Origin: a virus
Direction: 5' to 3' (one strand)
DNA length: 46,407 nt
Virus record (IMG/VR): IMGVR_UViG_3300014572_000008
Under the pieces are notes generated by a model. That model was not told the DNA's origin. It ran no database searches and worked only from the letters and a program-made list of their open reading frames with translations. Each line of letters opens with the position of its first letter. Within the stretch, counting starts at the first letter, position 1. Of the stretch, positions 3,153 through 44,688 are shown piece after piece. The position numbers were made by a program, and so were the translations under genes.

Positions 3153-3728
3153 ATGTCCGCAATACAGGATCTCGCTCCGTTTATCGGCGCGTATCAGGGG
3201 AAGATCAGAAGGGCAAAAGATGCAAGCGGGATGACGTTGGAGGAGCTGTCGAACGAGTCCGGCGTTTCCTTCTCTGCCGTGAGCCGATTATACGCTGGAA
3301 CACAAGCGGATCCACGGCTTTACAACTCGGCTGCGCTATGCAAAACGCTCGGGTTGTCGCTCGACGAGCTGTTCGGCCTTGAAAATCGCGTCGGAAGCCC
3401 GGAAAAGCTGACCAAGCAGATCCATCACGTCGAGCTTGAAAACGCCAAGCTGGAGGCAGCAACAGCCCTACAGAGCGCGCAGATAAGGTCTACACATACA
3501 ATGTGTTACATTCTCGCCCTATTTTGTTTGCTGCTCTCCTTTACCCTGATTGCCTGCCTTGTAACGGATGCGCAGATTCGGAACGCAGGCCTCATTCGCG
3601 ATGGAGATTTGACCGTAACCGCATGGGCGTGTATCGCCCTGATCGTAGGTTCAGTTCTGGCTTCTGCAATTACTTTCTACGCGATCCGAAAAGAACGTGG
3701 AGGGAAACATGGAGTGCATCAAGTGTAA
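3153..3728 (+). CDS. Membrane-tethered XRE-family HTH protein
   Basis: HTH MTLEELSNESGVSFSAVSRLYAGTQ; coiled segment; two C-terminal TM helices (MCYILALFCLLLSFTLIACLV, AWACIALIVGSVLASAITFYAI); GGAGG 7 nt before ATG; overlaps integrase start. Confidence 0.75.
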   Translation: MSAIQDLAPFIGAYQGKIRRAKDASGMTLEELSNESGVSFSAVSRLYAGTQADPRLYNSAALCKTLGLSLDELFGLENRVGSPEKLTKQIHHVELENAKLEAATALQSAQIRSTHTMCYILALFCLLLSFTLIACLVTDAQIRNAGLIRDGDLTVTAWACIALIVGSVLASAITFYAIRKERGGKHGVHQV

Positions 3729-4812
3729 AAAAGAAATTCCAGACGGCGCGCCCTACTGTTGCTGGTGCGGGAAAAAACAGGAAGCGCGGCGAAACCGGAC
3801 ACGCGGGAACGGGCAAGGAAGCGCTTACCAGCGAGGGAAGACGTGGACGGCGCGTTGGACAGAAAGAACTTACCTAGACGAGAACGACAAGCTTCGGCAA
3901 AAGATGCGAACAAAAGGCGGGTTTACATCAAAGCGCGCCGCCCTCCAATATGCAGCAAACCCTCCGAAGGAAGAGCAGCGAATCCCCACTCTCAGAGAAT
4001 ACTACAAAACATATCTGCGTGGGGATTATCTGTCCTTATCGGCTGATCGTCAGGGAGCGGCGGAAAAGGCTTTCGAGCGCATGAGAGAAATCGCCGACCG
4101 TGAGATAGACGCGCTTACCATCGCGCAGATACAGGATGTTATCGACCGCAACGCCAGCACCTATTACACACGGAAAGATATGAAAACCGTCCTTTCCCAC
4201 TGTTATAACCTCGCAATCGCAGAAAAGCAGACAACCGTGAATCTTGCAAAGTACATAAAGCTTCCGGAATTGGAAGAGAAGTCGCCGGAGCCGTTTACCG
4301 ACGCCGACGTAAAAAAGCTATGGGAAGCGTATGCAAAAGACCACTTCGTTGGGTTTATTTTAACGATGATTTATACCGGCATGATGCCCGGTGAGCTTCT
4401 GAAACTCAAGAAAGATATGATTGACTTTGAAAAGAATGAGATCGTCCGAGGCGGCATAAAGACAAAGAAGCGGAAGGAAACGCCTATGGTCTTCCCGGAT
4501 TTCGTTGCGCCGGTGCTGCATGAACTATGCGAAGAAAGCAAATCGCGCGTCGGAAATATCTGCTGCATAAACAAAGATAATTTTTACAAGAGATATTATG
4601 AGTGTTTGGAGCTTGCCGGAGTGCAAAAGCTACCACCTTACTCATGCCGCCATACAACCGCTACAGCCCTCGCGATGAAAAACATCGACCCGTTTACGAT
4701 CAAGGAAATCATGCGCCACACGAAGATAACGACTACCCAACGGTACGTACACCCGGACATGAAAGGCATGGTCGATGCCGTAAATCAGTTGCAAAACGAC
4801 TCGACAGAGTGA
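3709..4812 (+). CDS. int: Tyrosine recombinase / phage integrase with N-terminal zinc ribbon
   Basis: MECIKCKKEIPDGAPYCCWCG ribbon; C-terminal catalytic region ...CRHTTATALAMKNIDPFTIKEIMRHTKITTTQRYVH (H-x-x-R ... Y); next to attP; track ORF starts at GTG 3697. Confidence 0.9.
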   Translation: MECIKCKKEIPDGAPYCCWCGKKQEARRNRTRGNGQGSAYQRGKTWTARWTERTYLDENDKLRQKMRTKGGFTSKRAALQYAANPPKEEQRIPTLREYYKTYLRGDYLSLSADRQGAAEKAFERMREIADREIDALTIAQIQDVIDRNASTYYTRKDMKTVLSHCYNLAIAEKQTTVNLAKYIKLPELEEKSPEPFTDADVKKLWEAYAKDHFVGFILTMIYTGMMPGELLKLKKDMIDFEKNEIVRGGIKTKKRKETPMVFPDFVAPVLHELCEESKSRVGNICCINKDNFYKRYYECLELAGVQKLPPYSCRHTTATALAMKNIDPFTIKEIMRHTKITTTQRYVHPDMKGMVDAVNQLQNDSTE

Positions 4813-4874: not shown

Positions 4875-4939
4875 CTCCCCTGCTAAGGGAGTAGGCGTCT
4901 AAAAAGCGCGCGAGAGTTCAAATCTCTCCTTCCGCGCCA
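4875..4939 (+). tRNA. Partial tRNA-Ser(GCT): 3' fragment only (attP core candidate)
   Basis: Anticodon arm CTCCC-CTGCTAA-GGGAG (4875-4891, anticodon GCT 4882-4884), long variable region, T arm GAGAG-TTCAAAT-CTCTC (4912-4928), acceptor 3' strand CTTCCGC-G-CCA (4929-4939); no matching 5' acceptor/D arm upstream. Confidence 0.7.
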
Positions 4940-4984
4940 AAGTACCGATTTTAGCTGTTTTAAAGCTAAAATCGGTACTTTTTT
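4940..4984 (+). terminator. Rho-independent terminator
   Basis: Perfect 16-bp stem AAGTACCGATTTTAGC / GCTAAAATCGGTACTT, 9-nt loop, followed by T-run. Confidence 0.7.
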
Positions 4985-5046
4985 ATGATTTTCACCCTAT
5001 TTTCTGCGTATTTTCAAAAAGCAAAAAATAACGTTATGACACGCTC

Positions 5047-5130
5047 TGTAACATAAAATTATTTCCCGTATGCTACATTGTATGCTACAAATTCAGCGCA
5101 ATGCGAGGGGACTCCCCTATTTTTGCTACA
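5047..5130. repeat. Arm-type integrase-site candidates, right arm
   Basis: TGTAACATA (5047-5055, inverted copy), TATGCTACA (5069-5077), TATGCTACA (5081-5089), TTTGCTACA (5122-5130). Confidence 0.55.
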
Positions 5131-5473
5131 TGGACTTTATTTTCCGAAGCATAGAATCATAGACTTTTCGGTTCACAAGCGATAGTGTGTCCATAAGTTC
5201 ATCAACAACCGCCCAAGCCCTTGCCGGATCTTTCCCGGCTACCGCAAGTAAAAACTCACTGTCCCCGTACTCGCCCACGGTAGCCGGTTCTGCGGTCACA
5301 GGGGCGGGAGCGCCGGAGTAGCAACCCACATACCTACCGCCGTCGCCCCGTTCCTCCTCCTGCATCTTGTCGCGTATCACATAAAGATCTGCCAGTTTGG
5401 CATAATTGGGATAGCTGGATTCCTCATATTCCAGCCGCGCTATCTCCTTGCGGATCTCGGCTTTATCCAGCAT
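5126..5473 (-). CDS. Hypothetical protein (cargo, last gene before attP)
   Basis: 115 aa; AAGGAGG 6 nt before ATG 5473; MLDKAEIRKEIARLEYEESSYPNYAKLADLYV...; no domain recognised. Confidence 0.7.
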   Translation of the reverse strand: MLDKAEIRKEIARLEYEESSYPNYAKLADLYVIRDKMQEEERGDGGRYVGCYSGAPAPVTAEPATVGEYGDSEFLLAVAGKDPARAWAVVDELMDTLSLVNRKVYDSMLRKIKSM

Positions 5474-5484
5474 ATCGCGCCTCC

Positions 5485-5856
5485 TTATGCCCGCTCGATC
5501 TGCTCCATGCAGCGGCGGATCGCTTCGCGGGTCTTATCGTCGTCCGCATCGCGCATCATATCGTCCAGCTGCGCGCGCATATGATCGCGGGCGTCTGTGC
5601 GGCTGTAGCGGCCCATTGCGTCGCGGCGGCGGCCACGGTAAGAGCTGCCCCGTCCATATGTACCGCGCATATCCGCCTCCCACTCGCCATCGCGGGAATA
5701 GCCGCCGTCTTCAGCCATCTCGATCTTGTATGTATTCTTGATGGAGCTCGTCAGCTTCTGGATCGCGTCCAGATCGCCCGCAGACATTTCGCGCTTGTCG
5801 GCGATTTCGTCAAGCTCTTTGCAGAGCATTTCACGCAGGTTTCTCAAATCGTACAT
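5485..5856 (-). CDS. Hypothetical protein with Arg/Gly/Ser/Tyr-rich centre
   Basis: 123 aa from ATG 5856 (AAGGAGG upstream); helical ends flank GGYSRDGEWEADMRGTYGRGSSYRGRRRDAMGRYSR. Confidence 0.7.
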   Translation of the reverse strand: MYDLRNLREMLCKELDEIADKREMSAGDLDAIQKLTSSIKNTYKIEMAEDGGYSRDGEWEADMRGTYGRGSSYRGRRRDAMGRYSRTDARDHMRAQLDDMMRDADDDKTREAIRRCMEQIERA

Positions 5857-5870
5857 ATTGCATCCTCCTT

Positions 5871-6293
5871 TCACGATACGCGCTCGATGATCATATTGCT
5901 ATTTGCGAAATTGATCGCCTGGGCGCTGGTGTTCTTCGCCGCTACAGTCAGGCAGCAGCCGCGCGGGACTTCCACGAATGTGGAAACAAAGATGTTAAAA
6001 TAGTTTTCAACAGCCGCAGGGGTTACGGTCGCTGTGGCGCTGCTCAGAGGTTCGCCGTTGATTGCAAGCGCAGCGGTAATGGCACCTACTGTTCCGCCTG
6101 TAGGGATGGCGATATTCGCGCCAAAGGATACGCGGAACTTCGCCTTGCATTGCTGCGTAAGCCCGCGCAACGTAACAAGCCCGCTTCCTTCTCGATGTAC
6201 GATGCACGGCTTTCCGCAAGCCGCCGTGGAGATAAGCGGGACGTTCTGCCCAGCGGCGACAGTTTGAATCCCGGATGATGTAAATTCAGCCAT
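5871..6293 (-). CDS. BclA C-terminal-domain-like (C1q/TNF-like jelly roll) protein, no collagen region
   Basis: 140 aa; pattern FRVSFGANIAIPTGGTVGAITAALAINGEPL ... NSNMIIERVS resembles BclA-CTD strands (..IQVNGVPV.. / ..IIIEKV at the end); recognised from memory only. Confidence 0.6.
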   Translation of the reverse strand: MAEFTSSGIQTVAAGQNVPLISTAACGKPCIVHREGSGLVTLRGLTQQCKAKFRVSFGANIAIPTGGTVGAITAALAINGEPLSSATATVTPAAVENYFNIFVSTFVEVPRGCCLTVAAKNTSAQAINFANSNMIIERVS

Positions 6294-6310
6294 AAAATCA
6301 TTCCTTTCAT

Positions 6311-6343
6311 AAAAATACAGCGGCAGGGCGATTGCCCCGCCGC
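6311..6343 (-). terminator. Rho-independent terminator after the 6413-7174 gene
   Basis: 10-bp GC-rich stem (6320-6329 / 6334-6343, one G-U on the minus strand) followed on the minus strand by TGTATTTTT. Confidence 0.55.
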
Positions 6344-6412
6344 GTTGTTGTCAGTATCGGCACGGGGCCGACCATTTTCGTGAGGTCACGAAAAAGCTAT
6401 GCTATGCAGTTG

Positions 6413-7174
6413 TCAGCAGCCGCACCCCTGATTGCAGCCACAGCCGCCATAGCCGCTACCAGCCCACGGGTTACAGGTAATGTAAGCGGGGGAAGGGCAC
6501 GGACGCAGCTGCGAAATGAGGTAGTTGTTCTGCGCGGCCTGAGATGCCGCCAGCTTCAGATTCTGATTCTCGGTCTGGAGGTCGGACAGCTTGCTTTGCG
6601 TCAGGAAGTCGAGGATGGCGCGGCTGTTCTGGTTGTTCGCGTCAATGATGTCGCGCGTGGCGTTCTGCACGGTGTTGCGCGTGTCACACGCCTGCGTCGC
6701 CATGTCGTAGCGCACCTGGGCGATAGCTGCACGGTTTTCGCAGCAGCAATCTGCGGCCTGCATCTGCATGGCGTTGAGCTGCTGCATGAGAGCTGCCTGC
6801 TGGTTGCAGCGGGAAAGCTCGGCATTCTGGAAACCGCTGTTCATGTTCTGATTGACGCCCGCAAAGCCGTTCAGCAGCGTAGTGTTCATGGCGTAGAAGC
6901 CATCGCAGATGCCCTGCTGCGTAATGTCGCTTTTACGTTCGATCGTCGATGCTGCGCTGTCGATCTGGCGCTGAAGAGTGGCAAAATCACTTGCAAGGAC
7001 GTAATTGTCAGCAGCACCGCTGTTGCCGTTGTTTCCCCAGCCGCAGAAAACAAACAGGAAAAGAATGATGATCCACCACGCGCCATCGCCGCCGAAGCCG
7101 CCAAAGCCGCTGTTCATCATGCCGGTTGGCGCAACAGGCATAGTGGCCTGAACGCCGCCGTCAGAAAGAGACAT
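6413..7174 (-). CDS. Membrane protein: Gly-rich YjcZ-like N-terminus + TM, Gln/Asn-rich helical body, Cys-rich C-terminus
   Basis: GFGGFGGDGAWWIIILFLFVFCGWGNNGNSG; internal CCCENR; C-terminus SGYGGCGCNQGCGC; AAGGAG before ATG 7174. Confidence 0.75.
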   Translation of the reverse strand: MSLSDGGVQATMPVAPTGMMNSGFGGFGGDGAWWIIILFLFVFCGWGNNGNSGAADNYVLASDFATLQRQIDSAASTIERKSDITQQGICDGFYAMNTTLLNGFAGVNQNMNSGFQNAELSRCNQQAALMQQLNAMQMQAADCCCENRAAIAQVRYDMATQACDTRNTVQNATRDIIDANNQNSRAILDFLTQSKLSDLQTENQNLKLAASQAAQNNYLISQLRPCPSPAYITCNPWAGSGYGGCGCNQGCGC

Positions 7175-7240
7175 AGTATCACTCCTTTGAAAAATTTTTA
7201 TTCATCAAATCGTGGCCACGATGTTGATTTATGTTGATGA

Positions 7241-7453
7241 TTACTGCATCAGGCTTTGAAACTGCTTCGCCATCTGCTGTAGCTGATTGAGCTGCTGCTG
7301 GTTTAGCTTACCACTCTGCAAGAGCTTTTCGACCTCGGCTTTGGGGTCGCCCTTGAAATTTGCTTTGAACTGGTTGAACTGCTGCACCATCTGTGCAAAA
7401 TTGCCCATCGGCATCTGCCCGCCGCCCAGCGCGGCCATAAACGGATTACTCAT
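7241..7453 (-). CDS. Small Gln-rich hypothetical protein
   Basis: 70 aa; ATG overlaps upstream stop (ATGAGTAA); ...LNQQQLNQLQQMAKQFQSLMQ. Confidence 0.6.
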   Translation of the reverse strand: MSNPFMAALGGGQMPMGNFAQMVQQFNQFKANFKGDPKAEVEKLLQSGKLNQQQLNQLQQMAKQFQSLMQ

Positions 7454-7895
7454 CGTCTTCGTCCTCCTCGGCCTTGCGTTTCTTTTTGCCCTTTATTTCG
7501 CCCACAAGAGCCGCCAGCGCGTCAAACTCTTTACGGGTGACAAATTCCATGCCCTTTCCCTGCGGAGATGTACGGGGCGTCTCTGCGCGCTCTACAAGGT
7601 CGTAAATCTTGAGAGTCGGCTTCCCGCTTGCATCCGCCTGCTTGAGATACACAGTCGGCGCGGTAGAATCCCACAGCGCCACAGCGGAGTTGGGCGCGAT
7701 GAGATAACCCCTTGCCTCCTGCTCGCCGTTTACCCACTGCACACCGCTCTGCGCGATGGGGTTCTGTTGCACTGGCTGCGACATAGGCTGCTGCATGGGC
7801 TGCATCTGTGGCTGCTGCATCTGCCGCATCTGCATGAGGTTATCCGGCATCGGCTGCGGATAATAGGGATTGAAATAGGGATATGCCATGTTCAT
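7446..7895 (-). CDS. Hypothetical protein: Pro/Gln/Met-rich N-terminus, globular core, acidic/basic tail
   Basis: PYFNPYYPQPMPDNLMQMRQMQQPQMQPMQQP...; core GEQEARGYLIAPNSAVALWDSTAPTVYLK; ATG 7895 overlaps upstream TGA (ATGA); alternative ATG 7889. Confidence 0.7.
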   Translation of the reverse strand: MNMAYPYFNPYYPQPMPDNLMQMRQMQQPQMQPMQQPMSQPVQQNPIAQSGVQWVNGEQEARGYLIAPNSAVALWDSTAPTVYLKQADASGKPTLKIYDLVERAETPRTSPQGKGMEFVTRKEFDALAALVGEIKGKKKRKAEEDEDDE

Positions 7896-8278
7896 TCCTC
7901 CGTTTCTTTTACCCAGTAATAAAGCGGGATTTCGTTCTCGCTATTCCAGCTGTCATAGATCGTCCCATCCTGCACGCACACTACATGCCCAGAGAGGGCG
8001 AGAATATACGTCCCGCGCGGGTGCTCATCGGCAAACCTGCCGACCGTGTAGCAGTCCGGGCAGGTGTTCGGCATCACGTTCCGGGTAAAACCATGCTGCC
8101 GTAGGTATGCACCCCATACACTGTTTGCGCTCGGCAGATCTCCCATGATGAGTCCTTGCAGGCACAATCCGATATACACCTCGTCCCAGCTCTTCCCGGT
8201 CGCCTTTGCGATGGCCCGGACGGTGCAGTCCCCGACCTTCTGCCCGGCGGGGTTTGGATTAAAATAAGAAAAGCCCAT
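7892..8278 (-). CDS. Putative papain-fold cysteine peptidase-like protein
   Basis: 128 aa from ATG 8278 (AGGAG upstream; track ORF longer); candidate Cys in VGDCTVRAIAKATG and His in LSGHVVCVQDGTIYDSW; fold call is inference. Confidence 0.6.
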   Translation of the reverse strand: MGFSYFNPNPAGQKVGDCTVRAIAKATGKSWDEVYIGLCLQGLIMGDLPSANSVWGAYLRQHGFTRNVMPNTCPDCYTVGRFADEHPRGTYILALSGHVVCVQDGTIYDSWNSENEIPLYYWVKETEE

Positions 8279-8361
8279 ACCGAACACTCCTTTGTGTGTC
8301 CAGTATGGGCCTTTTTGCGGCTTCTTGTGCCTCAGTTGTGTATCAATTTGGTTCAAAATTT

Positions 8362-8386
8362 AAGCCCGCGGTTATTCCACGGGCTT
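8362..8386 (-). terminator. Weak terminator candidate after the HTH gene
   Basis: AAGCCCG / CGGGCTT 7-bp stem; minus strand continues AAATTTT. Confidence 0.4.
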
Positions 8387-8394
8387 AGTTTTTG

Positions 8395-8736
8395 TTATCG
8401 TTCGTTTACAGCCAGAATCTCCGCCGCCATCGCGGCCACATACGGCGGGCATCCACGCCGTCCGCCGCACCAGTCCTGCACGGTGCGCAGCGGGATTCCA
8501 AAATACTGCGCAAATCCGGTCTGCGTCAGGCCGTATTTTTTGATCACATCCGGGATCGTGCAGTGCGCGCCGTCCCAGATCCCGCCGAGCAGCGCCAGCC
8601 GCTCCGCCAGAATCTCTTCGTCTTCGGCATCGCCCCAGACGCTGGACAGCGCCATATCGGAGATGTAGGAGTCGCGGTCGGTGTATGCACCGGTTTCGGC
8701 GTAGAGGGCGGAGCGGATAAAGGGTGTGAGTTTCAT
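8395..8736 (-). CDS. HTH DNA-binding protein (Aca-like autoregulator candidate)
   Basis: 113 aa; C-terminal HTH KKYGLTQTGFAQYFGIPLRTVQDWCGG; GGAGG before ATG 8736; last gene of the 9877-8395 operon. Confidence 0.8.
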   Translation of the reverse strand: MKLTPFIRSALYAETGAYTDRDSYISDMALSSVWGDAEDEEILAERLALLGGIWDGAHCTIPDVIKKYGLTQTGFAQYFGIPLRTVQDWCGGRRGCPPYVAAMAAEILAVNER

Positions 8737-8748
8737 TTTTCGATCCTC

Positions 8749-9285
8749 CTATACTGATGAATTTTGCTGCATGAGCGCGTCCCAGCTGGCCCAGAGTTCG
8801 CGGTTGCAAGGTTCGCCGTGCAGCGAATCGAGAATATCAGCAACTTCTGCCGGGCTTTGATAGTACAGGACGCACGTTTCGCCGGTCTGCGTGCGCTGAA
8901 ATTGCAGCTTTTTCGGCCCTGCCGAAAAATGCGAGGATATTTGCGTTAAAAGCTCAGGCTGCCCGTAAACCCGCAGCCGTGGCGTCCTGGTGGGCTTGCC
9001 ACGTACCTTGTGCGGCCAGAGATCAAGGCAAGCTTGCAGCTCCACCACACCGCGGCAAAATCCCTGCCAATCCGTCACGTCGGCGAGGGACGGGAGAAGA
9101 TGCACCTTCGCGGATTTCACAACCCAAAAGTCTTTCTTCCCGTCTGCACGGTGCTGGAGGTATGGCGCAGTAGGGAAAAGCTCGGCAACCGCGTTGATGT
9201 ACCACCGATCAACACAGCGGACAAGGAACTTGCCGCAGGTATCAACGCCGAGCAGCATGAGGATCGCTTGCTGATAGCCGTTCAA
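8749..9285 (-). CDS. Hypothetical protein (178 aa)
   Basis: Starts at TTG 9285 overlapping upstream TGA (TTGA); no domain recognised; alternative ATG 9258 lacks an RBS. Confidence 0.6.
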   Translation of the reverse strand: MNGYQQAILMLLGVDTCGKFLVRCVDRWYINAVAELFPTAPYLQHRADGKKDFWVVKSAKVHLLPSLADVTDWQGFCRGVVELQACLDLWPHKVRGKPTRTPRLRVYGQPELLTQISSHFSAGPKKLQFQRTQTGETCVLYYQSPAEVADILDSLHGEPCNRELWASWDALMQQNSSV

Positions 9286-9641
9286 TCGTCCTCTTCCCCC
9301 AAATCTGCACGAAGTTCATCGGCCCATGCTTCTATTTCCGCCCGGCAGTGGGCCGCGTACTCCTCATACGTTTCGAAGTCCCCGATAATGTATCGGATAT
9401 TGGTAAGCCTGTAGATTTCGAATGTATGGATATCCGCAAAACGGTCCGCGATCTTATGCCCTTGTAAGTTCTTATCGTAAGGTTCGTCTCCTACTGGAGC
9501 CATAACCTTCGCCAGAATTTCCGTTTGTTCCTCATACCATGCGTTGCGCTCTTCCTGCGTCGAAAACCGCATCGGTTCCTGTGCGCGGCCTGCGTCGCGC
9601 CCGGCCTCCATGATTCTAGTGATTTCCTCTACGTTCGTCAT
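9282..9641 (-). CDS. Acidic hypothetical protein (119 aa)
   Basis: ATG 9641 with GGAGGG 7 nt upstream (track ORF starts earlier); Asp/Glu-rich, ends ADELRADLGEEDD. Confidence 0.65.
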   Translation of the reverse strand: MTNVEEITRIMEAGRDAGRAQEPMRFSTQEERNAWYEEQTEILAKVMAPVGDEPYDKNLQGHKIADRFADIHTFEIYRLTNIRYIIGDFETYEEYAAHCRAEIEAWADELRADLGEEDD

Positions 9642-9658
9642 CTGTAGTTCCCTCCGTT

Positions 9659-9877
9659 TCAAATTCTATCGCCGTAAACCTGCACACGCTCCCACACGTC
9701 TTCGGGGATGTTGTGCTCAACCTTGCCGAAGTACCATGCGGCAAGCATACTGCCGTCGCTGTCGCGGCTTTCCTTGTTCGCAAGCGCCAGAAGACGGTAT
9801 GCATAATCGGAACGATGGTTGAAAATGATCTGGCCGTTCTCGTCGGTGACTTTGTAAAAGTATTTGTACTGTTTCAT
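9659..9877 (-). CDS. Small hypothetical protein (72 aa), first gene of the cargo operon
   Basis: GGGAGGG RBS before ATG 9877; about 45 nt downstream of the consensus promoter. Confidence 0.65.
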   Translation of the reverse strand: MKQYKYFYKVTDENGQIIFNHRSDYAYRLLALANKESRDSDGSMLAAWYFGKVEHNIPEDVWERVQVYGDRI

Positions 9878-9921
9878 TTTTGTTCCCTCCCGGCTTTCGC
9901 CTTGCTTTATCTTATGGCTTT

Positions 9922-9950
9922 ATTATACACGCAATGCGTGTAATTGTCAA
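9922..9950 (-). promoter_or_regulatory. Perfect sigma-70 consensus promoter with palindromic operator
   Basis: Minus strand TTGACA (9950-9945), 17-nt spacer, TATAAT (9927-9922); perfect 15-bp palindrome ACACGCA-a-TGCGTGT at 9927-9941. Confidence 0.8.
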
Positions 9951-9961
9951 GAGGAAAATGC

Positions 9962-10001
9962 AAAAATTTTTAAAAATAAGCGCCGATTTCTCGGCGCTTA
10001 T
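9962..10001 (-). terminator. Rho-independent terminator closing the late operon
   Basis: ATAAGCGCCGA / TCGGCGCTTAT 11-bp stem, 4-nt loop, long T-run on the minus strand (plus-strand A-run 9962-9975). Confidence 0.8.
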
Positions 10002-10002
10002 C

Positions 10003-10251
10003 TCAGTTATACAGTTTGCTGGATGTCCGCTGCATCTCCCGCATGATCTCCGGCAGGCGGCGCTGGACCGTGGCGCGGCCCAGGAACAGCTCCGTCGCAA
10101 CGTCTACCTGGGGAAGCTTATCCACAAAATAGAGCTGCGCGATCTTCTCATTTTCCCGGCCAAGATTGGCCTGATAGATTACGGCCTCCATATCCTTTCT
10201 GGTCAGCCTGCCCAGCTCTGGCGGCAGCTTGGCCCGCGCCTGCGGCGACAT
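10003..10251 (-). CDS. Sigma-70 region-4-like HTH protein
   Basis: 82 aa; LPQVDVATELFLGRATVQRRLPEIM resembles region 4.2; AAGGAGG before ATG; directly follows the endolysin gene. Confidence 0.65.
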   Translation of the reverse strand: MSPQARAKLPPELGRLTRKDMEAVIYQANLGRENEKIAQLYFVDKLPQVDVATELFLGRATVQRRLPEIMREMQRTSSKLYN

Positions 10252-10264
10252 ACGCCCCGCCTCC

Positions 10265-10975
10265 TTACTTTTCCTTGTGCTTCAGCACGGCAATATTTCC
10301 TTTATTGCCGACTTCGAGATCCAGCGCGGCGGCGATATCGCGCACCTTTACGTAGTTCGTACCGTTTTTCAGGATACGCTCAACGGCGACTTCCTTTCCG
10401 TCGACGATGATCTTGCTCTTTTCTACCATTTCGGTTTCCTCCTCTGCATTTTTTCCATCTTCGAGGGCCATCACGGTATGGCCCTCGCTTACCAGTACGT
10501 CCCCGCGCAGGAGATTCGCGTCCGTCGTCAGATACTTGCTGCCGGTCAGCAGCACAAAATCTCCCGTTGCTGGCCAATCGTGCAGCATACAGTAGGTGGT
10601 GCAGCTGTTGCCCTGCCGACGGTAGAGCGCTTCGACCGACGCGCAGCCTGCAGCCACGGCGCAGAGCATCATGAGCGCGGAGCAGTCCGTCTCCACGGGC
10701 TTTGCGATCCTGCTCACGTCCCACCCGACGGCTCTGGCGGCCTCATACGCCGTGTTCCTGTTGTCCATGTCGTAGCCGATGTTCCGGTTCTTAATGGCCG
10801 CCTCGCACGTCTGCGCGGCCCGCTCGGCCTTTTTGCGGCTCTTGTAGCGCAGGACGCCGAGCCAGCGGCCATTGTACCAGTTGGAGATATTCAGCTCCCG
10901 CCCGGTCTGGTTGCCGGGCTGCTGGTTGCGGCCGCCCGTCTCTCCAAGGCTGGCCTGCCCGATCTTGATGCTCAT
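10265..10975 (-). CDS. Endolysin: NlpC/P60- or CHAP-like catalytic domain + C-terminal wall-binding domain
   Basis: Cys in PVETDCSALMMLC and His in VSEGHTVMAL; C-terminal DGKEVAVERILKNGTNYVKVRDIAAALDLEV resembles copper-amine-oxidase-N-like stalk domains; ATGA overlap with holin stop. Confidence 0.85.
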   Translation of the reverse strand: MSIKIGQASLGETGGRNQQPGNQTGRELNISNWYNGRWLGVLRYKSRKKAERAAQTCEAAIKNRNIGYDMDNRNTAYEAARAVGWDVSRIAKPVETDCSALMMLCAVAAGCASVEALYRRQGNSCTTYCMLHDWPATGDFVLLTGSKYLTTDANLLRGDVLVSEGHTVMALEDGKNAEEETEMVEKSKIIVDGKEVAVERILKNGTNYVKVRDIAAALDLEVGNKGNIAVLKHKEK

Positions 10976-11190
10976 TTCTGCGCATCCTCCTTCGTGGCGT
11001 TGTCAATCGCGTCCTGCGCTTTCTGGCTCTGTGTGCCAAAGTAAAACGCGATCACGACGGTATACACCATCATAAAGTCCTGCGAGATCTTCCCGGCGAC
11101 TGCCATGTACGCAAATACCGCCGTCAGCACCAGCGTGACGATGGATTTGACGCTCAGCAGATTGCCGAGCCGCTTCTTGATGTTTTCCAT
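10972..11190 (-). CDS. Holin (two TM helices)
   Basis: 72 aa from ATG 11190 (GGAG upstream); SIVTLVLTAVFAYMAVAG and FMMVYTVVIAFYFG helices, charged tail; immediately before the endolysin. Confidence 0.8.
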   Translation of the reverse strand: MENIKKRLGNLLSVKSIVTLVLTAVFAYMAVAGKISQDFMMVYTVVIAFYFGTQSQKAQDAIDNATKEDAQK

Positions 11191-11203
11191 ATGTATGCTC
11201 CTT

Positions 11204-11416
11204 TCAGTCCTCTGTTTCGCTTTCGCTTCTCGTCGCAACCGCGTCAGAGATTGCGAGGTTCGCACGAAGCATTGTATCCTCCAACTTTGTCAGGGCGATA
11301 CTTCTATTCCTTCCCGCCGGGAGCTGCATGATGAGCGCCTCCGCTTCTTCAAGCTTCCCCCGAATGCTTTCCGACAGGTGTTTATCCATCGGTTCAAAAT
11401 TCACTCGCTTATACAT
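11204..11416 (-). CDS. Small helical hypothetical protein
   Basis: 70 aa; ...RNRSIALTKLEDTMLRANLAI...; lies in the lysis cassette. Confidence 0.6.
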   Translation of the reverse strand: MYKRVNFEPMDKHLSESIRGKLEEAEALIMQLPAGRNRSIALTKLEDTMLRANLAISDAVATRSESETED

Positions 11417-44111: not shown

Positions 44112-44270
44112 TTATCCTTCCTCCTGTTTCATCTTTCCCACCAGCCACAGCGGCGGGAACAAATAACGATCTTCGTCCTCCGGCTCGTCCGGCTCGTACT
44201 CCGGCTCGTACTCCGGCTCGTACTCCGGCTCTGGAATGCTCAAGTACAGGTTTTCGCCGTCATACGCCAT
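44112..44270 (-). CDS. Acidic micro-protein with (EPEY)3 repeat (52 aa, below ORF-track cutoff)
   Basis: MAYDGENLYLSIPEPEYEPEYEPEYEPDEPEDEDRYLFPPLWLVGKMKQEEG; stop 1 nt before the Sak4-like ATG. Confidence 0.5.
   Translation of the reverse strand: MAYDGENLYLSIPEPEYEPEYEPEYEPDEPEDEDRYLFPPLWLVGKMKQEEG
44180..44232. repeat. 12-bp tandem repeat (CCGGCTCGTACT, 3 full copies plus partial flanks)
   Basis: Full units at 44189-44200, 44201-44212, 44213-44224; encodes the EPEY repeat on the minus strand. Confidence 0.9.
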
Positions 44271-44604
44271 TCCGGCTCACCTCCTGGCGGATCAGCGCTT
44301 CACAGAAGCTCTGCACCGTGGAATAGCCCAGCTTTTTCAGAAGCCTGTCCAACTTCTTAGCCTGCTCGTCCGTCAGCCGGAAATAATACCGGTTCACCTT
44401 CCGGCGCTTATCGCTGCGGTTCTTCGGCGCGTCCAGCGCCTTGATCGCCGCAGCTGCCTCCGGAACAAGCTGCACGCCGTATTTCTCCGGCGCTTCGCAC
44501 TGAGAAAGCAGGCATTTGTTGAACTTCGGGTAGTCGGCCCGATGTACCGCGTCGACGCAGGCTTTCGCACCATGCCGGACGCGGGAATCCGTTAAACTTG
44601 ACAT
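44260..44604 (-). CDS. Hypothetical protein, possible RHH-like C-terminus
   Basis: 114 aa; YYFRLTDEQAKKLDRLLKKLGYSTVQSFCEALI; AAAGGAA before ATG 44604. Confidence 0.6.
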   Translation of the reverse strand: MSSLTDSRVRHGAKACVDAVHRADYPKFNKCLLSQCEAPEKYGVQLVPEAAAAIKALDAPKNRSDKRRKVNRYYFRLTDEQAKKLDRLLKKLGYSTVQSFCEALIRQEVSRNGV

Positions 44605-44626
44605 ATGTTCCTTTCTGCCCTATAAT
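44598..44626 (+). promoter_or_regulatory. Perfect sigma-70 consensus promoter, antisense to the early operon
   Basis: TTGACA (44598-44603), 17-nt spacer, TATAAT (44621-44626); -35 box overlaps the start codon of 44260-44604. Confidence 0.7.
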
Positions 44627-44688
44627 GAGGGCGACAATCGTTTTCCTTTCGGCCTCTGTCGCGTTGCCGCGCGGCAGGGGTCATTTCT

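Follow-up and report, generated by a model that had tools for sequence, protein, structure and literature searches.

We analysed a 46,407-nucleotide (nt) stretch of viral DNA, IMG/VR record IMGVR_UViG_3300014572_000008 (hereafter the window), which is essentially a whole temperate phage. Between its lysis genes and its integrase gene it carries a cassette of three cargo genes and a terminal gene for a 113-amino-acid (aa) helix-turn-helix (HTH) protein, all read from the minus strand behind a single consensus promoter with an internal palindrome. Comparison with related loci indicates that the HTH protein very probably binds this palindrome and represses its own promoter: promoter, palindrome and regulator travel together between phages, and the palindrome changes in step with the recognition helix of the protein. 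We also favour, with more reserve, the reading that the cassette is a self-contained accessory operon following the logic of anti-CRISPR (acr) operons with an anti-CRISPR-associated (aca) regulator, and that its exchangeable cargo is used in conflict with the host or with competitors.

Recurrence of promoter, operator and regulator

The first-pass annotation of this DNA had described four open reading frames (ORFs; 72, 119, 178 and 113 aa) behind the sequence TTGACA, an exact 17-nt spacer and TATAAT, with the perfect palindrome ACACGCA-N-TGCGTGT overlapping the -10 box. All of these were recovered where that annotation had put them (Table 1), the ORFs being tightly packed and co-oriented. The palindrome is made up of the 14 spacer nt next to the -10 box and the first T of that box. 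The promoter had further been held to be rare by chance, and this also stands: 0.09 matches to TTGACA-N17-TATAAT with at most one mismatch are expected in the window, three are present, two of them perfect, and none of 100 dinucleotide-preserving shuffles reached three. The palindrome by itself is statistically unremarkable in the window; its significance comes from the comparative data.

We located the HTH gene in each fetched locus (designated L and a number) and scanned the DNA upstream of it for a promoter. A promoter of the form TTGAC[A/T]-17 nt-TATAAT, matching at 10 or more of the 12 positions, lies 350-1214 base pairs (bp) upstream in 94 of the 98 loci with a full-length HTH gene; three of the other four are short of upstream DNA, and L069 is the single exception. 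Of the promoter-bearing loci, 87 have an inverted repeat in the spacer that is perfect, has arms of 5 bp or more and abuts the -10 box; the spacer repeat of the remaining seven is imperfect. The 109 loci that share the flanking genes of the window amount to 66 distinct sequences, 65 of which have a promoter at 10/12 or better and 49 a perfect one (12/12).

The same architecture of promoter and repeat is found in unrelated phages. In a phage with a P22-like portal protein (L005-7) the cassette is an opposite-strand island. It lies between integrase and CHAP lysin genes in L008, where the palindrome is TACCACCGA-T-TCGGTGGTA, and follows amidase lysin genes in L126 and L127, with the palindrome TACCACGCA.TGCGTGGTA (8-bp arms and a 3-nt loop in L126). 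L128 is a further unrelated example.

Within the lineage of the window there are three operator types, which differ symmetrically at positions 3 and 5 of the half-site, and each has its own partner residue 88 and partner residues 91-95 in the HTH protein. Operator A, (A/G)CACGCA.TGCGTGT, goes with RTVQ-D-WCGGRRG (D88; 17 distinct pairs, 46 loci), operator B,.CGCCCA.TGGGCG., with RTVQ-H-WCLGDRA (H88; 21 distinct pairs, 29 loci) and operator C,.CGCTCA.TGAGCGT, with RTVQ-G-WC[LI]GER (G88; 7 distinct pairs, 12 loci). Operator type and recognition helix correspond without exception in 50 distinct protein-operator pairs (94 loci). The pairing holds at 40-46% protein identity as well, D88 occurring with operator A in L012, L014 and L128, and G88 with GER beside GCGCTCA.TGAGCG in L016. 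Because both half-sites change symmetrically and track one co-encoded protein across independent lineages, the palindrome would be the site of a dimeric repressor; repression is implied because the site overlaps the -10 box of a promoter that has no need of an activator. The proposal of the first-pass annotation that the HTH protein is an autoregulator acting at the palindrome thus finds strong comparative backing, in the recurrence of the module and in the covariation of helix and operator.

Two other roles for the palindrome were considered and set aside. The CI-like repressor encoded at the left end of the window is unlikely to be its binder, because the window has a single copy of the operator sequence, and this sequence accompanies the 113-aa gene in other phage backbones. 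A function as an RNA hairpin was rejected, the palindrome sitting upstream of the predicted transcription start, just past the terminator.

A large family of two-domain regulators

The 113-aa protein has two domains, both conserved in its family: a family-specific N-terminal domain (residues 1-60) and a C-terminal HTH of the XRE type (residues 62-105). Pfam gives sub-threshold HTH matches only (HTH_3, E-value (E) 0.067); the earlier assignment of an HTH is upheld by a match to phrog_25567 (E 2.8e-9) and by a search of the protein's profile against all PDB chains, which finds XRE-type regulators over residues 63-94 (2ppx, E 0.0016).

The family is large and previously undescribed. It forms 96 clusters at 90% identity in a metagenome protein collection, and occurs in 326 IMG/VR contigs. 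Among 1.84 billion cluster representatives, 592 belong to it at E <= 1e-10, and more than 100 of these 592 match over the full length. Its members either stand alone, with 105-125 aa, or make up the C-terminal part of larger proteins; ten of these larger proteins, scanned with Pfam, gave one AP2 and one HTH_3 match only. Full-length copies are found in metagenome-assembled genomes (MAGs) of Oscillospiraceae, Clostridia and Bacillota, and the hosts of the cassette phages are uncultured gut Clostridia (Oscillospiraceae MAGs). Matches in GTDB genomes of Azospirillum and Lachnospiraceae (L018-L045) cover the generic HTH segment only and were left out. One contig with a cassette of the Clostridia-phage type (L010, CAKUYG010000035.1) has been assigned to a MAG with the label Bacteroidales, probably by a binning error, and is therefore unsuitable for host inference. 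The plasmid collection contains one distant relative, on the Butyrivibrio plasmid pCY360, where an imperfect repeat lies beside a TATAAT box; the promoter-repeat architecture is weaker there and the surrounding annotation uninformative.

Turnover of the cargo and exchange of the regulator

The genes between promoter and regulator vary greatly. At the one locus defined by the shared flanking genes, the 66 distinct sequences show at least 15 gene orders, a count that is approximate because the automatic ORF caller made some wrong-frame calls (for example in family 7), and about 25 unrelated cargo families occur across all HTH-linked loci. The first position is held by the 72-aa gene in the window and elsewhere by genes unrelated to it: an 87-aa acidic gene, a 67-aa acidic gene or a 91-aa gene. 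Later positions are held by 119-aa, 178-aa, 125-aa, 79-aa and 140-aa genes, or by genes for zinc-ribbon-repeat proteins of 185, 201 and 236 aa, two of them with an HTH paralog: the cargo proteins of 201-236 aa in L001 (4294-5004), L090 and similar loci consist of three or four zinc-ribbon repeats and a C-terminal HTH paralog. In L129 (2617-3309) a 230-aa protein joins zinc ribbons to the whole regulator. Distant loci add further cargo families, some of which recur across lineages, such as a 91-aa family in L001, L015/L017 and L127. The smallest cassettes have one gene of 67-101 aa and the HTH gene. Almost every cassette encodes a small protein with a net charge of -10 to -18.

Cargo type and regulator type are not tied to each other. 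The cargo set of the window (72, 119 and 178 aa) is found with operator A in the window and in L046-48 and with operator B in L092 and L096, and HTH proteins that are 85-100% identical are paired with entirely different cargo sets. The regulator itself can be exchanged: a search with the 119-aa gene found 55 IMG/VR loci, about 42 of which end not in the HTH gene but in a gene for a 63-aa ribbon-helix-helix (RHH) protein. These RHH cassettes (L140-L189), which in sister phages occupy the locus of the window's cassette, have an equally perfect promoter, TTGACA-TATACGGTATTACGGTA-TATAAT, with ACGGTAT repeats, the candidate operator sequence of the RHH protein being TATACGGTATTACGGTATATAAT. Their usual gene order is 184-aa Cys-rich, 119-aa, 101-aa, RHH (for example L140, 1853-3371). 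The 119-, 79- and 67-aa genes are common to HTH- and RHH-governed cassettes, some of which are inverted. L133 combines an RHH regulator and the palindrome ACGGTA-T-TACCGT with the leader seen in the window, and L131 has a third type of regulator, an HTH_3 protein of 163 aa, its palindrome being TATACCGT-AA-ACGGTATA. The leader in question, ...CCATAAGATAAAGCAAGGCGA(A/T)AAGCCGG..., is common to cassettes that start with 72-, 87-, 91-, 67- or 89-aa genes and extends to the RHH-regulated cassette of L133.

This exchange of parts bears on two other explanations of the cassette. It might be a moron for lysogenic conversion or defence, expressed from the prophage to an extent that the autorepressor sets, and protecting the lysogen by superinfection exclusion, by abortive infection or as a toxin-antitoxin pair in reversed order. 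It resembles phage morons in having its own promoter, terminators on both sides, an insertion between conserved genes and variable content, and it sits where morons are typically found, with the lysis genes on one side and the integrase end on the other; classical morons are, however, usually described without a dedicated autorepressor matched to its operator, and the label is silent on function. The two-gene versions of the cassette resemble toxin-first toxin-antitoxin pairs, since a small gene is followed by an HTH autoregulator with a palindromic operator in the promoter, as in HigBA and MqsRA, and such autoregulation is typical of these systems too; the cargo with zinc ribbon and HTH, built like MqsA, also gives MqsA_antitoxin matches (E 2e-5, below the Pfam cut-off). 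Against this, nearly identical HTH proteins occur with different cargo and the same cargo with an unrelated RHH protein, and because cargo and regulator are independent, the cognate interface of a toxin-antitoxin pair is incompatible with the data. The HTH protein has no conserved partner, the small partners are strongly acidic whereas the known toxins of such pairs are mostly basic RNases, and neither a PADLOC match nor a toxin domain (Pfam, NCBIfam) was found. We regard a role as lysogeny or defence moron as unlikely.

The cassette might also be a developmental control module like immI of phage P22, which has the strong promoter Pant, the RHH autorepressor Arc, Mnt and an antirepressor. The acidic proteins would then be antirepressors or anti-sigma factors, and the LAGLIDADG-like and zinc-ribbon proteins sequence-specific transcription factors for promoters of the phage or the host. 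Both systems have a very strong promoter in the late region that is, in the cassette presumably, shut off by a small repressor from the same transcript. The RHH variant of the sister phages is reminiscent of Arc and, standing behind such a promoter, resembles arc-ant; many cassettes encode a second DNA-binding protein, and the gene directly upstream codes for an 82-aa protein that resembles sigma-70 region 4. The core of a developmental switch should nevertheless be conserved, whereas here an otherwise conserved backbone carries at least 15 gene orders and the cassette is in some cases down to one small gene besides the regulator. Moreover, the regulator comes last and not first, the cargo is hypervariable, no Ant, KilA or Bro domain is encoded, and the operator occurs a single time in the window. 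An immI-like role strikes us as improbable.

The cargo proteins

The cargo families are novel and unlike annotated or solved proteins: the three cargo families of the window and six sister cargo families have no match in Pfam, NCBIfam, PADLOC, annotated PHROGs or PDB chains, and the 72-aa protein has no significant family or PDB match. The 119-aa protein belongs to a narrow family (12 clusters). Structure prediction, which the first-pass annotation had recommended for the small proteins, was informative for one of them and not for the other: the 178-aa protein gave a confident AlphaFold2 model (pLDDT, the predicted local distance difference test, 93.6; predicted template-modelling score (pTM) 0.88), but that of the 119-aa protein is unreliable (pLDDT 53.5) and too poor for a fold search, so that the suggestion of a DNA mimic is based only on the charge of the latter. 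The acidity of the small cargo proteins would fit mimicry of DNA.

The first-pass annotation had found the cargo to be without recognisable domains. This holds at the level of sequence, but not for the predicted structure of the 178-aa protein, which shows a clear LAGLIDADG fold. The model consists of two alpha-beta-beta-alpha-beta-beta-alpha repeats (pseudo-dimeric), and its Foldseek matches are all LAGLIDADG endonucleases, maturases, WhiA N-terminal domains or intein endonuclease domains (PDB, E 4e-6, probability 1.0, query-normalised template-modelling score (TMq) up to 0.69; BFVD, E 3e-7). By sequence the protein has neither a Pfam nor a PDB match, and a profile of its family does not match I-CreI significantly. 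The motifs equivalent to LAGLIDADG are QQAILMLLG and CRGVVELQ[A/G], in a register read from where the helices end in the model and from the alignment of the family, not from a structural alignment; small residues are retained at positions 3 and 9, and position 8, the place of the catalytic acid, is L12 and Q84 (nearly invariant), not D or E.

The family has 41 homologous clusters, the most distant of them 45% identical to the window protein, and 23 residues are invariant across 33 sequences, down to 46% identity. Many invariant basic residues lie on the beta-sheets of the model. Because position 8 is L and Q, and since the basic beta-sheet residues fit, the 178-aa protein is, judging by the model, probably a scaffold that binds DNA or RNA without cleaving it; the good conservation of a family that lacks the catalytic acids indicates selection for a function other than cleavage. 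The protein shares the pseudo-dimeric fold with LAGLIDADG endonucleases and with their non-catalytic derivatives, WhiA and the maturases, but differs from the endonucleases in being very compact, without catalytic acids, and encoded in a regulated operon instead of an intron or intein. Some relatives have N-terminal zinc-ribbon repeats (P0126, P0136), and elsewhere this position in the cassette is held by fusions of zinc ribbons with an HTH or an AP2-like domain. Cargo of the zinc-ribbon and AP2-like kinds weakly matches the DNA-binding parts of phage HNH-endonuclease PHROGs.

One might put the variability down to selfish DNA and take the LAGLIDADG-like, zinc-ribbon and AP2-like genes for decayed free-standing homing-endonuclease genes that entered this intergenic site and are of no benefit to the phage, for which the fold, the HNH-endonuclease matches and the presence of such genes in some related phages but not in others would speak; this is very improbable, as the 178-aa family is conserved despite its lost catalytic acids, and the conserved promoter, the matched operator and regulator and the many small acidic genes would be left unexplained.

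A proposed accessory operon with acr-aca logic

The favoured reading, an accessory operon with acr-aca logic, can be set out as follows. On entry of the phage DNA, host sigma-A polymerase would fire the consensus promoter, no phage factor being needed. The transcript would carry the three cargo genes and, last, the gene for the HTH protein. This protein, probably as a dimer, would then bind the 7-1-7 palindrome between spacer and -10 box and block the polymerase, so that expression would come as a burst followed by shut-off, with a low steady state in the lysogen. Promoter, operator and regulator would thus make up a portable control module and the genes in between its exchangeable cargo, most likely serving counter-defence or takeover against the host or competing mobile elements.

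In all ten bacterial Aca families analysed, an inverted repeat lies inside the core promoter, Aca and Acr types are functionally uncoupled, and many aca-like genes stand apart from any known acr gene (PMC9410906). For Aca14, which belongs to the RHH proteins, the repeat overlaps the -10 box; the cargo of Aca-controlled operons is diverse and extends to nucleases, helicases and restriction-modification genes (PMC13551039). The cassette is alike in several respects: its last gene encodes a small HTH regulator (the 63-aa RHH protein in sister cassettes), its strong core promoter has an internal inverted repeat, a conserved regulator follows variable, unrelated and exchangeable genes, and the type of regulator, where an RHH protein may replace the HTH, is independent of the type of cargo.

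Several observations weigh against this reading. No validated or homologous anti-CRISPR gene is present, and searches of the cargo for known anti-CRISPR or anti-restriction proteins (Pfam, PHROGs, NCBIfam and PDB, whose sequences include solved anti-CRISPR proteins) gave no match. Comparison of the regulator with the Aca families, proposed in the first-pass annotation, was unsuccessful among those with solved structures: the only named Aca or Acr found among PDB chains is Aca1 (7c0g), at a non-significant E of 1.5, and the regulator differs from them in its 113-aa, two-domain build with the HTH at the C-terminus. The penultimate genes often encode DNA-binding proteins (LAGLIDADG-like, zinc-ribbon repeats, zinc ribbon with HTH paralog, AP2-like), a feature uncommon in classical acr loci that may hint at a role in regulation, and the 178-aa gene is not a typical small inhibitor. 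As neither a link to a known anti-defence gene nor homology to a named Aca was found in these searches, we do not class the cassette as acr-aca. That at least one of the cargo genes has anti-defence activity is a real possibility, if one that we would place somewhat short of probable.

Setting of the cassette in the phage genome

The coordinates of the cassette and its surroundings are given in Table 1. The replication, structural and lysis genes of the window are on the minus strand. The first-pass annotation had placed a strong terminator before the cassette and a hairpin after the HTH gene, and both are borne out by folding. Upstream, the hairpin 9973-10004 and its U-tract fold at -21.5 kcal/mol (z-score (z) -5.3); this terminator, which is kept in the related loci whose upstream flanks were compared, ends the transcript of the lysis module and insulates the cassette promoter. 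TTGACA begins about 10 bases past it, and an AT-rich stretch precedes the promoter. Downstream, the hairpin directly after the HTH gene folds at -22.6 kcal/mol (z -6.6) and is present in L001 too. The next gene has its Shine-Dalgarno sequence and AUG within the loop and 3' arm of the second, stronger hairpin, which could both terminate the cassette transcript and mask the translation start of that gene. This second hairpin is found in L001 as well. An Rfam search of 8200-10100 with an E-value threshold gave matches at chance level only.

Table 1. Coordinates of the cassette and of neighbouring features in the window
Feature	Position	Strand	Remarks
CI-like HTH_3 gene	3153-3728	+	left end
Integrase gene	3697-4812	+	left end; convergent with the minus-strand block
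Next gene downstream of the cassette, 129 aa	7892-8281	-	phrog_3754
Second, stronger terminator-like hairpin, 19 bp	8269-8314	-	followed by U-rich UUUUCUUAUUU; -30.3 kcal/mol, z -6.3
Terminator-like hairpin	8361-8387	-	short U-tract; directly 3' of the HTH gene
Regulator gene, 113 aa	8395-8736	-	last gene; good Shine-Dalgarno sequence
Cargo gene 3, 178 aa	8749-9285	-	TTG start overlaps the preceding stop (ATTGA)
Cargo gene 2, 119 aa	9282-9641	-	net charge -16; isoelectric point 4.4; ends DLGEEDD
Cargo gene 1, 72 aa	9659-9877	-	near-neutral; isoelectric point 6.05
5' untranslated region (conserved leader)	9878-9921	-	Shine-Dalgarno sequence GGGAGGG
Consensus sigma-70/sigma-A promoter, TTGACA-17 nt-TATAAT	9922-9950	-	-35 box 9950-9945; -10 box 9927-9922
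Operator, 7-1-7 palindrome ACACGCA-N-TGCGTGT	9927-9941		putative site of the HTH dimer
Intrinsic terminator	9962-10004	-	stem 9973-10004 (14 bp, GC-rich); U-rich tail UUAUUUUU
Gene for 82-aa protein resembling sigma-70 region 4	10003-10251	-	Pfam E 0.045; TIGR02937 E 9e-4
ELLD-type endolysin gene	10265-10975	-	Pfam ELLD E 9e-60

The position of the cassette had been compared with that of the acrIIA loci of Listeria prophages, just downstream of the lysin gene near the prophage end. The cassette does follow the lysis genes, but not the lysin gene directly, as the gene for the 82-aa sigma-like protein intervenes between the endolysin gene and the terminator. Nor does the cassette lie at the prophage end, for seven further conserved minus-strand genes (5126-8281) separate it from the convergent integrase gene. 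The sigma-like gene, whose product is weakly similar to ECF sigma factors as well as to sigma-70 region 4, adjoins the ELLD lysin gene in all related phages, whichever the orientation of the cassette.

The block at 5126-8281 consists of phage-only families to which no function is assigned (phrog_3754, 21718, 16490, 20016 and others), among them a 149-aa protein rich in Q and P and one of 253 aa whose C-terminus is Cys-rich; no site resembling a promoter was found ahead of the block. Between this block and the integrase gene, an 18-bp AT-rich perfect hairpin with T-runs on both sides (4939-4981) has the look of a terminator working in both directions. The opposite edge of the lysogeny module has, ahead of the CI-like repressor and integrase genes, a plus-strand gene (1745-2623) for a 292-aa protein with N-terminal double zinc-ribbon domains (Pfam, E 2e-10). 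A megablast search with 5000-11300 against GenBank phages gave no match to the cassette itself.

The second perfect TTGACA-17 nt-TATAAT of the window lies on the plus strand at 44598-44626, its -35 box overlapping the start codon of a minus-strand ORF (44260-44604). About 25 nt past it is a 14-bp GC-rich hairpin with a U-rich stretch (44651-44682; -25.8 kcal/mol, z -3.0). Promoter and hairpin could yield a short antisense RNA, about 60-70 nt long, against the leader of the early/replication operon. The palindrome of the cassette type is absent from this promoter.

Implications

The 113-aa family is a candidate for a new group of Aca-like regulators that mark a hypervariable accessory hotspot. 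The stronger statement, that these two-domain HTH proteins are new Aca-type controllers marking a hotspot for counter-defence in the phages of Oscillospiraceae and other Clostridia of the gut, and that the roughly 25 cargo families are new anti-defence proteins, is at present rather doubtful. If it were true, catalytically dead LAGLIDADG proteins and zinc-ribbon binders might work through binding to specific DNA sequences and not through inhibition of proteins, for example silencing host defence loci or masking phage DNA, and the D/H/G88 code would be a natural, readable set of orthogonal repressor-operator pairs. To our knowledge, almost no anti-defence proteins have been described for phages of uncultured gut Clostridia. 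Should the cargo prove to be anti-defence, the regulator family would offer a guilt-by-association route to inhibitors in this group.

Whatever the role of the cargo, the module is a clean natural case of the evolution of repressor specificity, with three operators tracking one or two residues of the recognition helix and a non-homologous RHH protein, together with its own operator, swapped into the same promoter frame. The conserved LAGLIDADG-fold protein without catalytic acids, in some relatives joined to zinc ribbons, suggests that the homing-endonuclease scaffold has been put to a new use.

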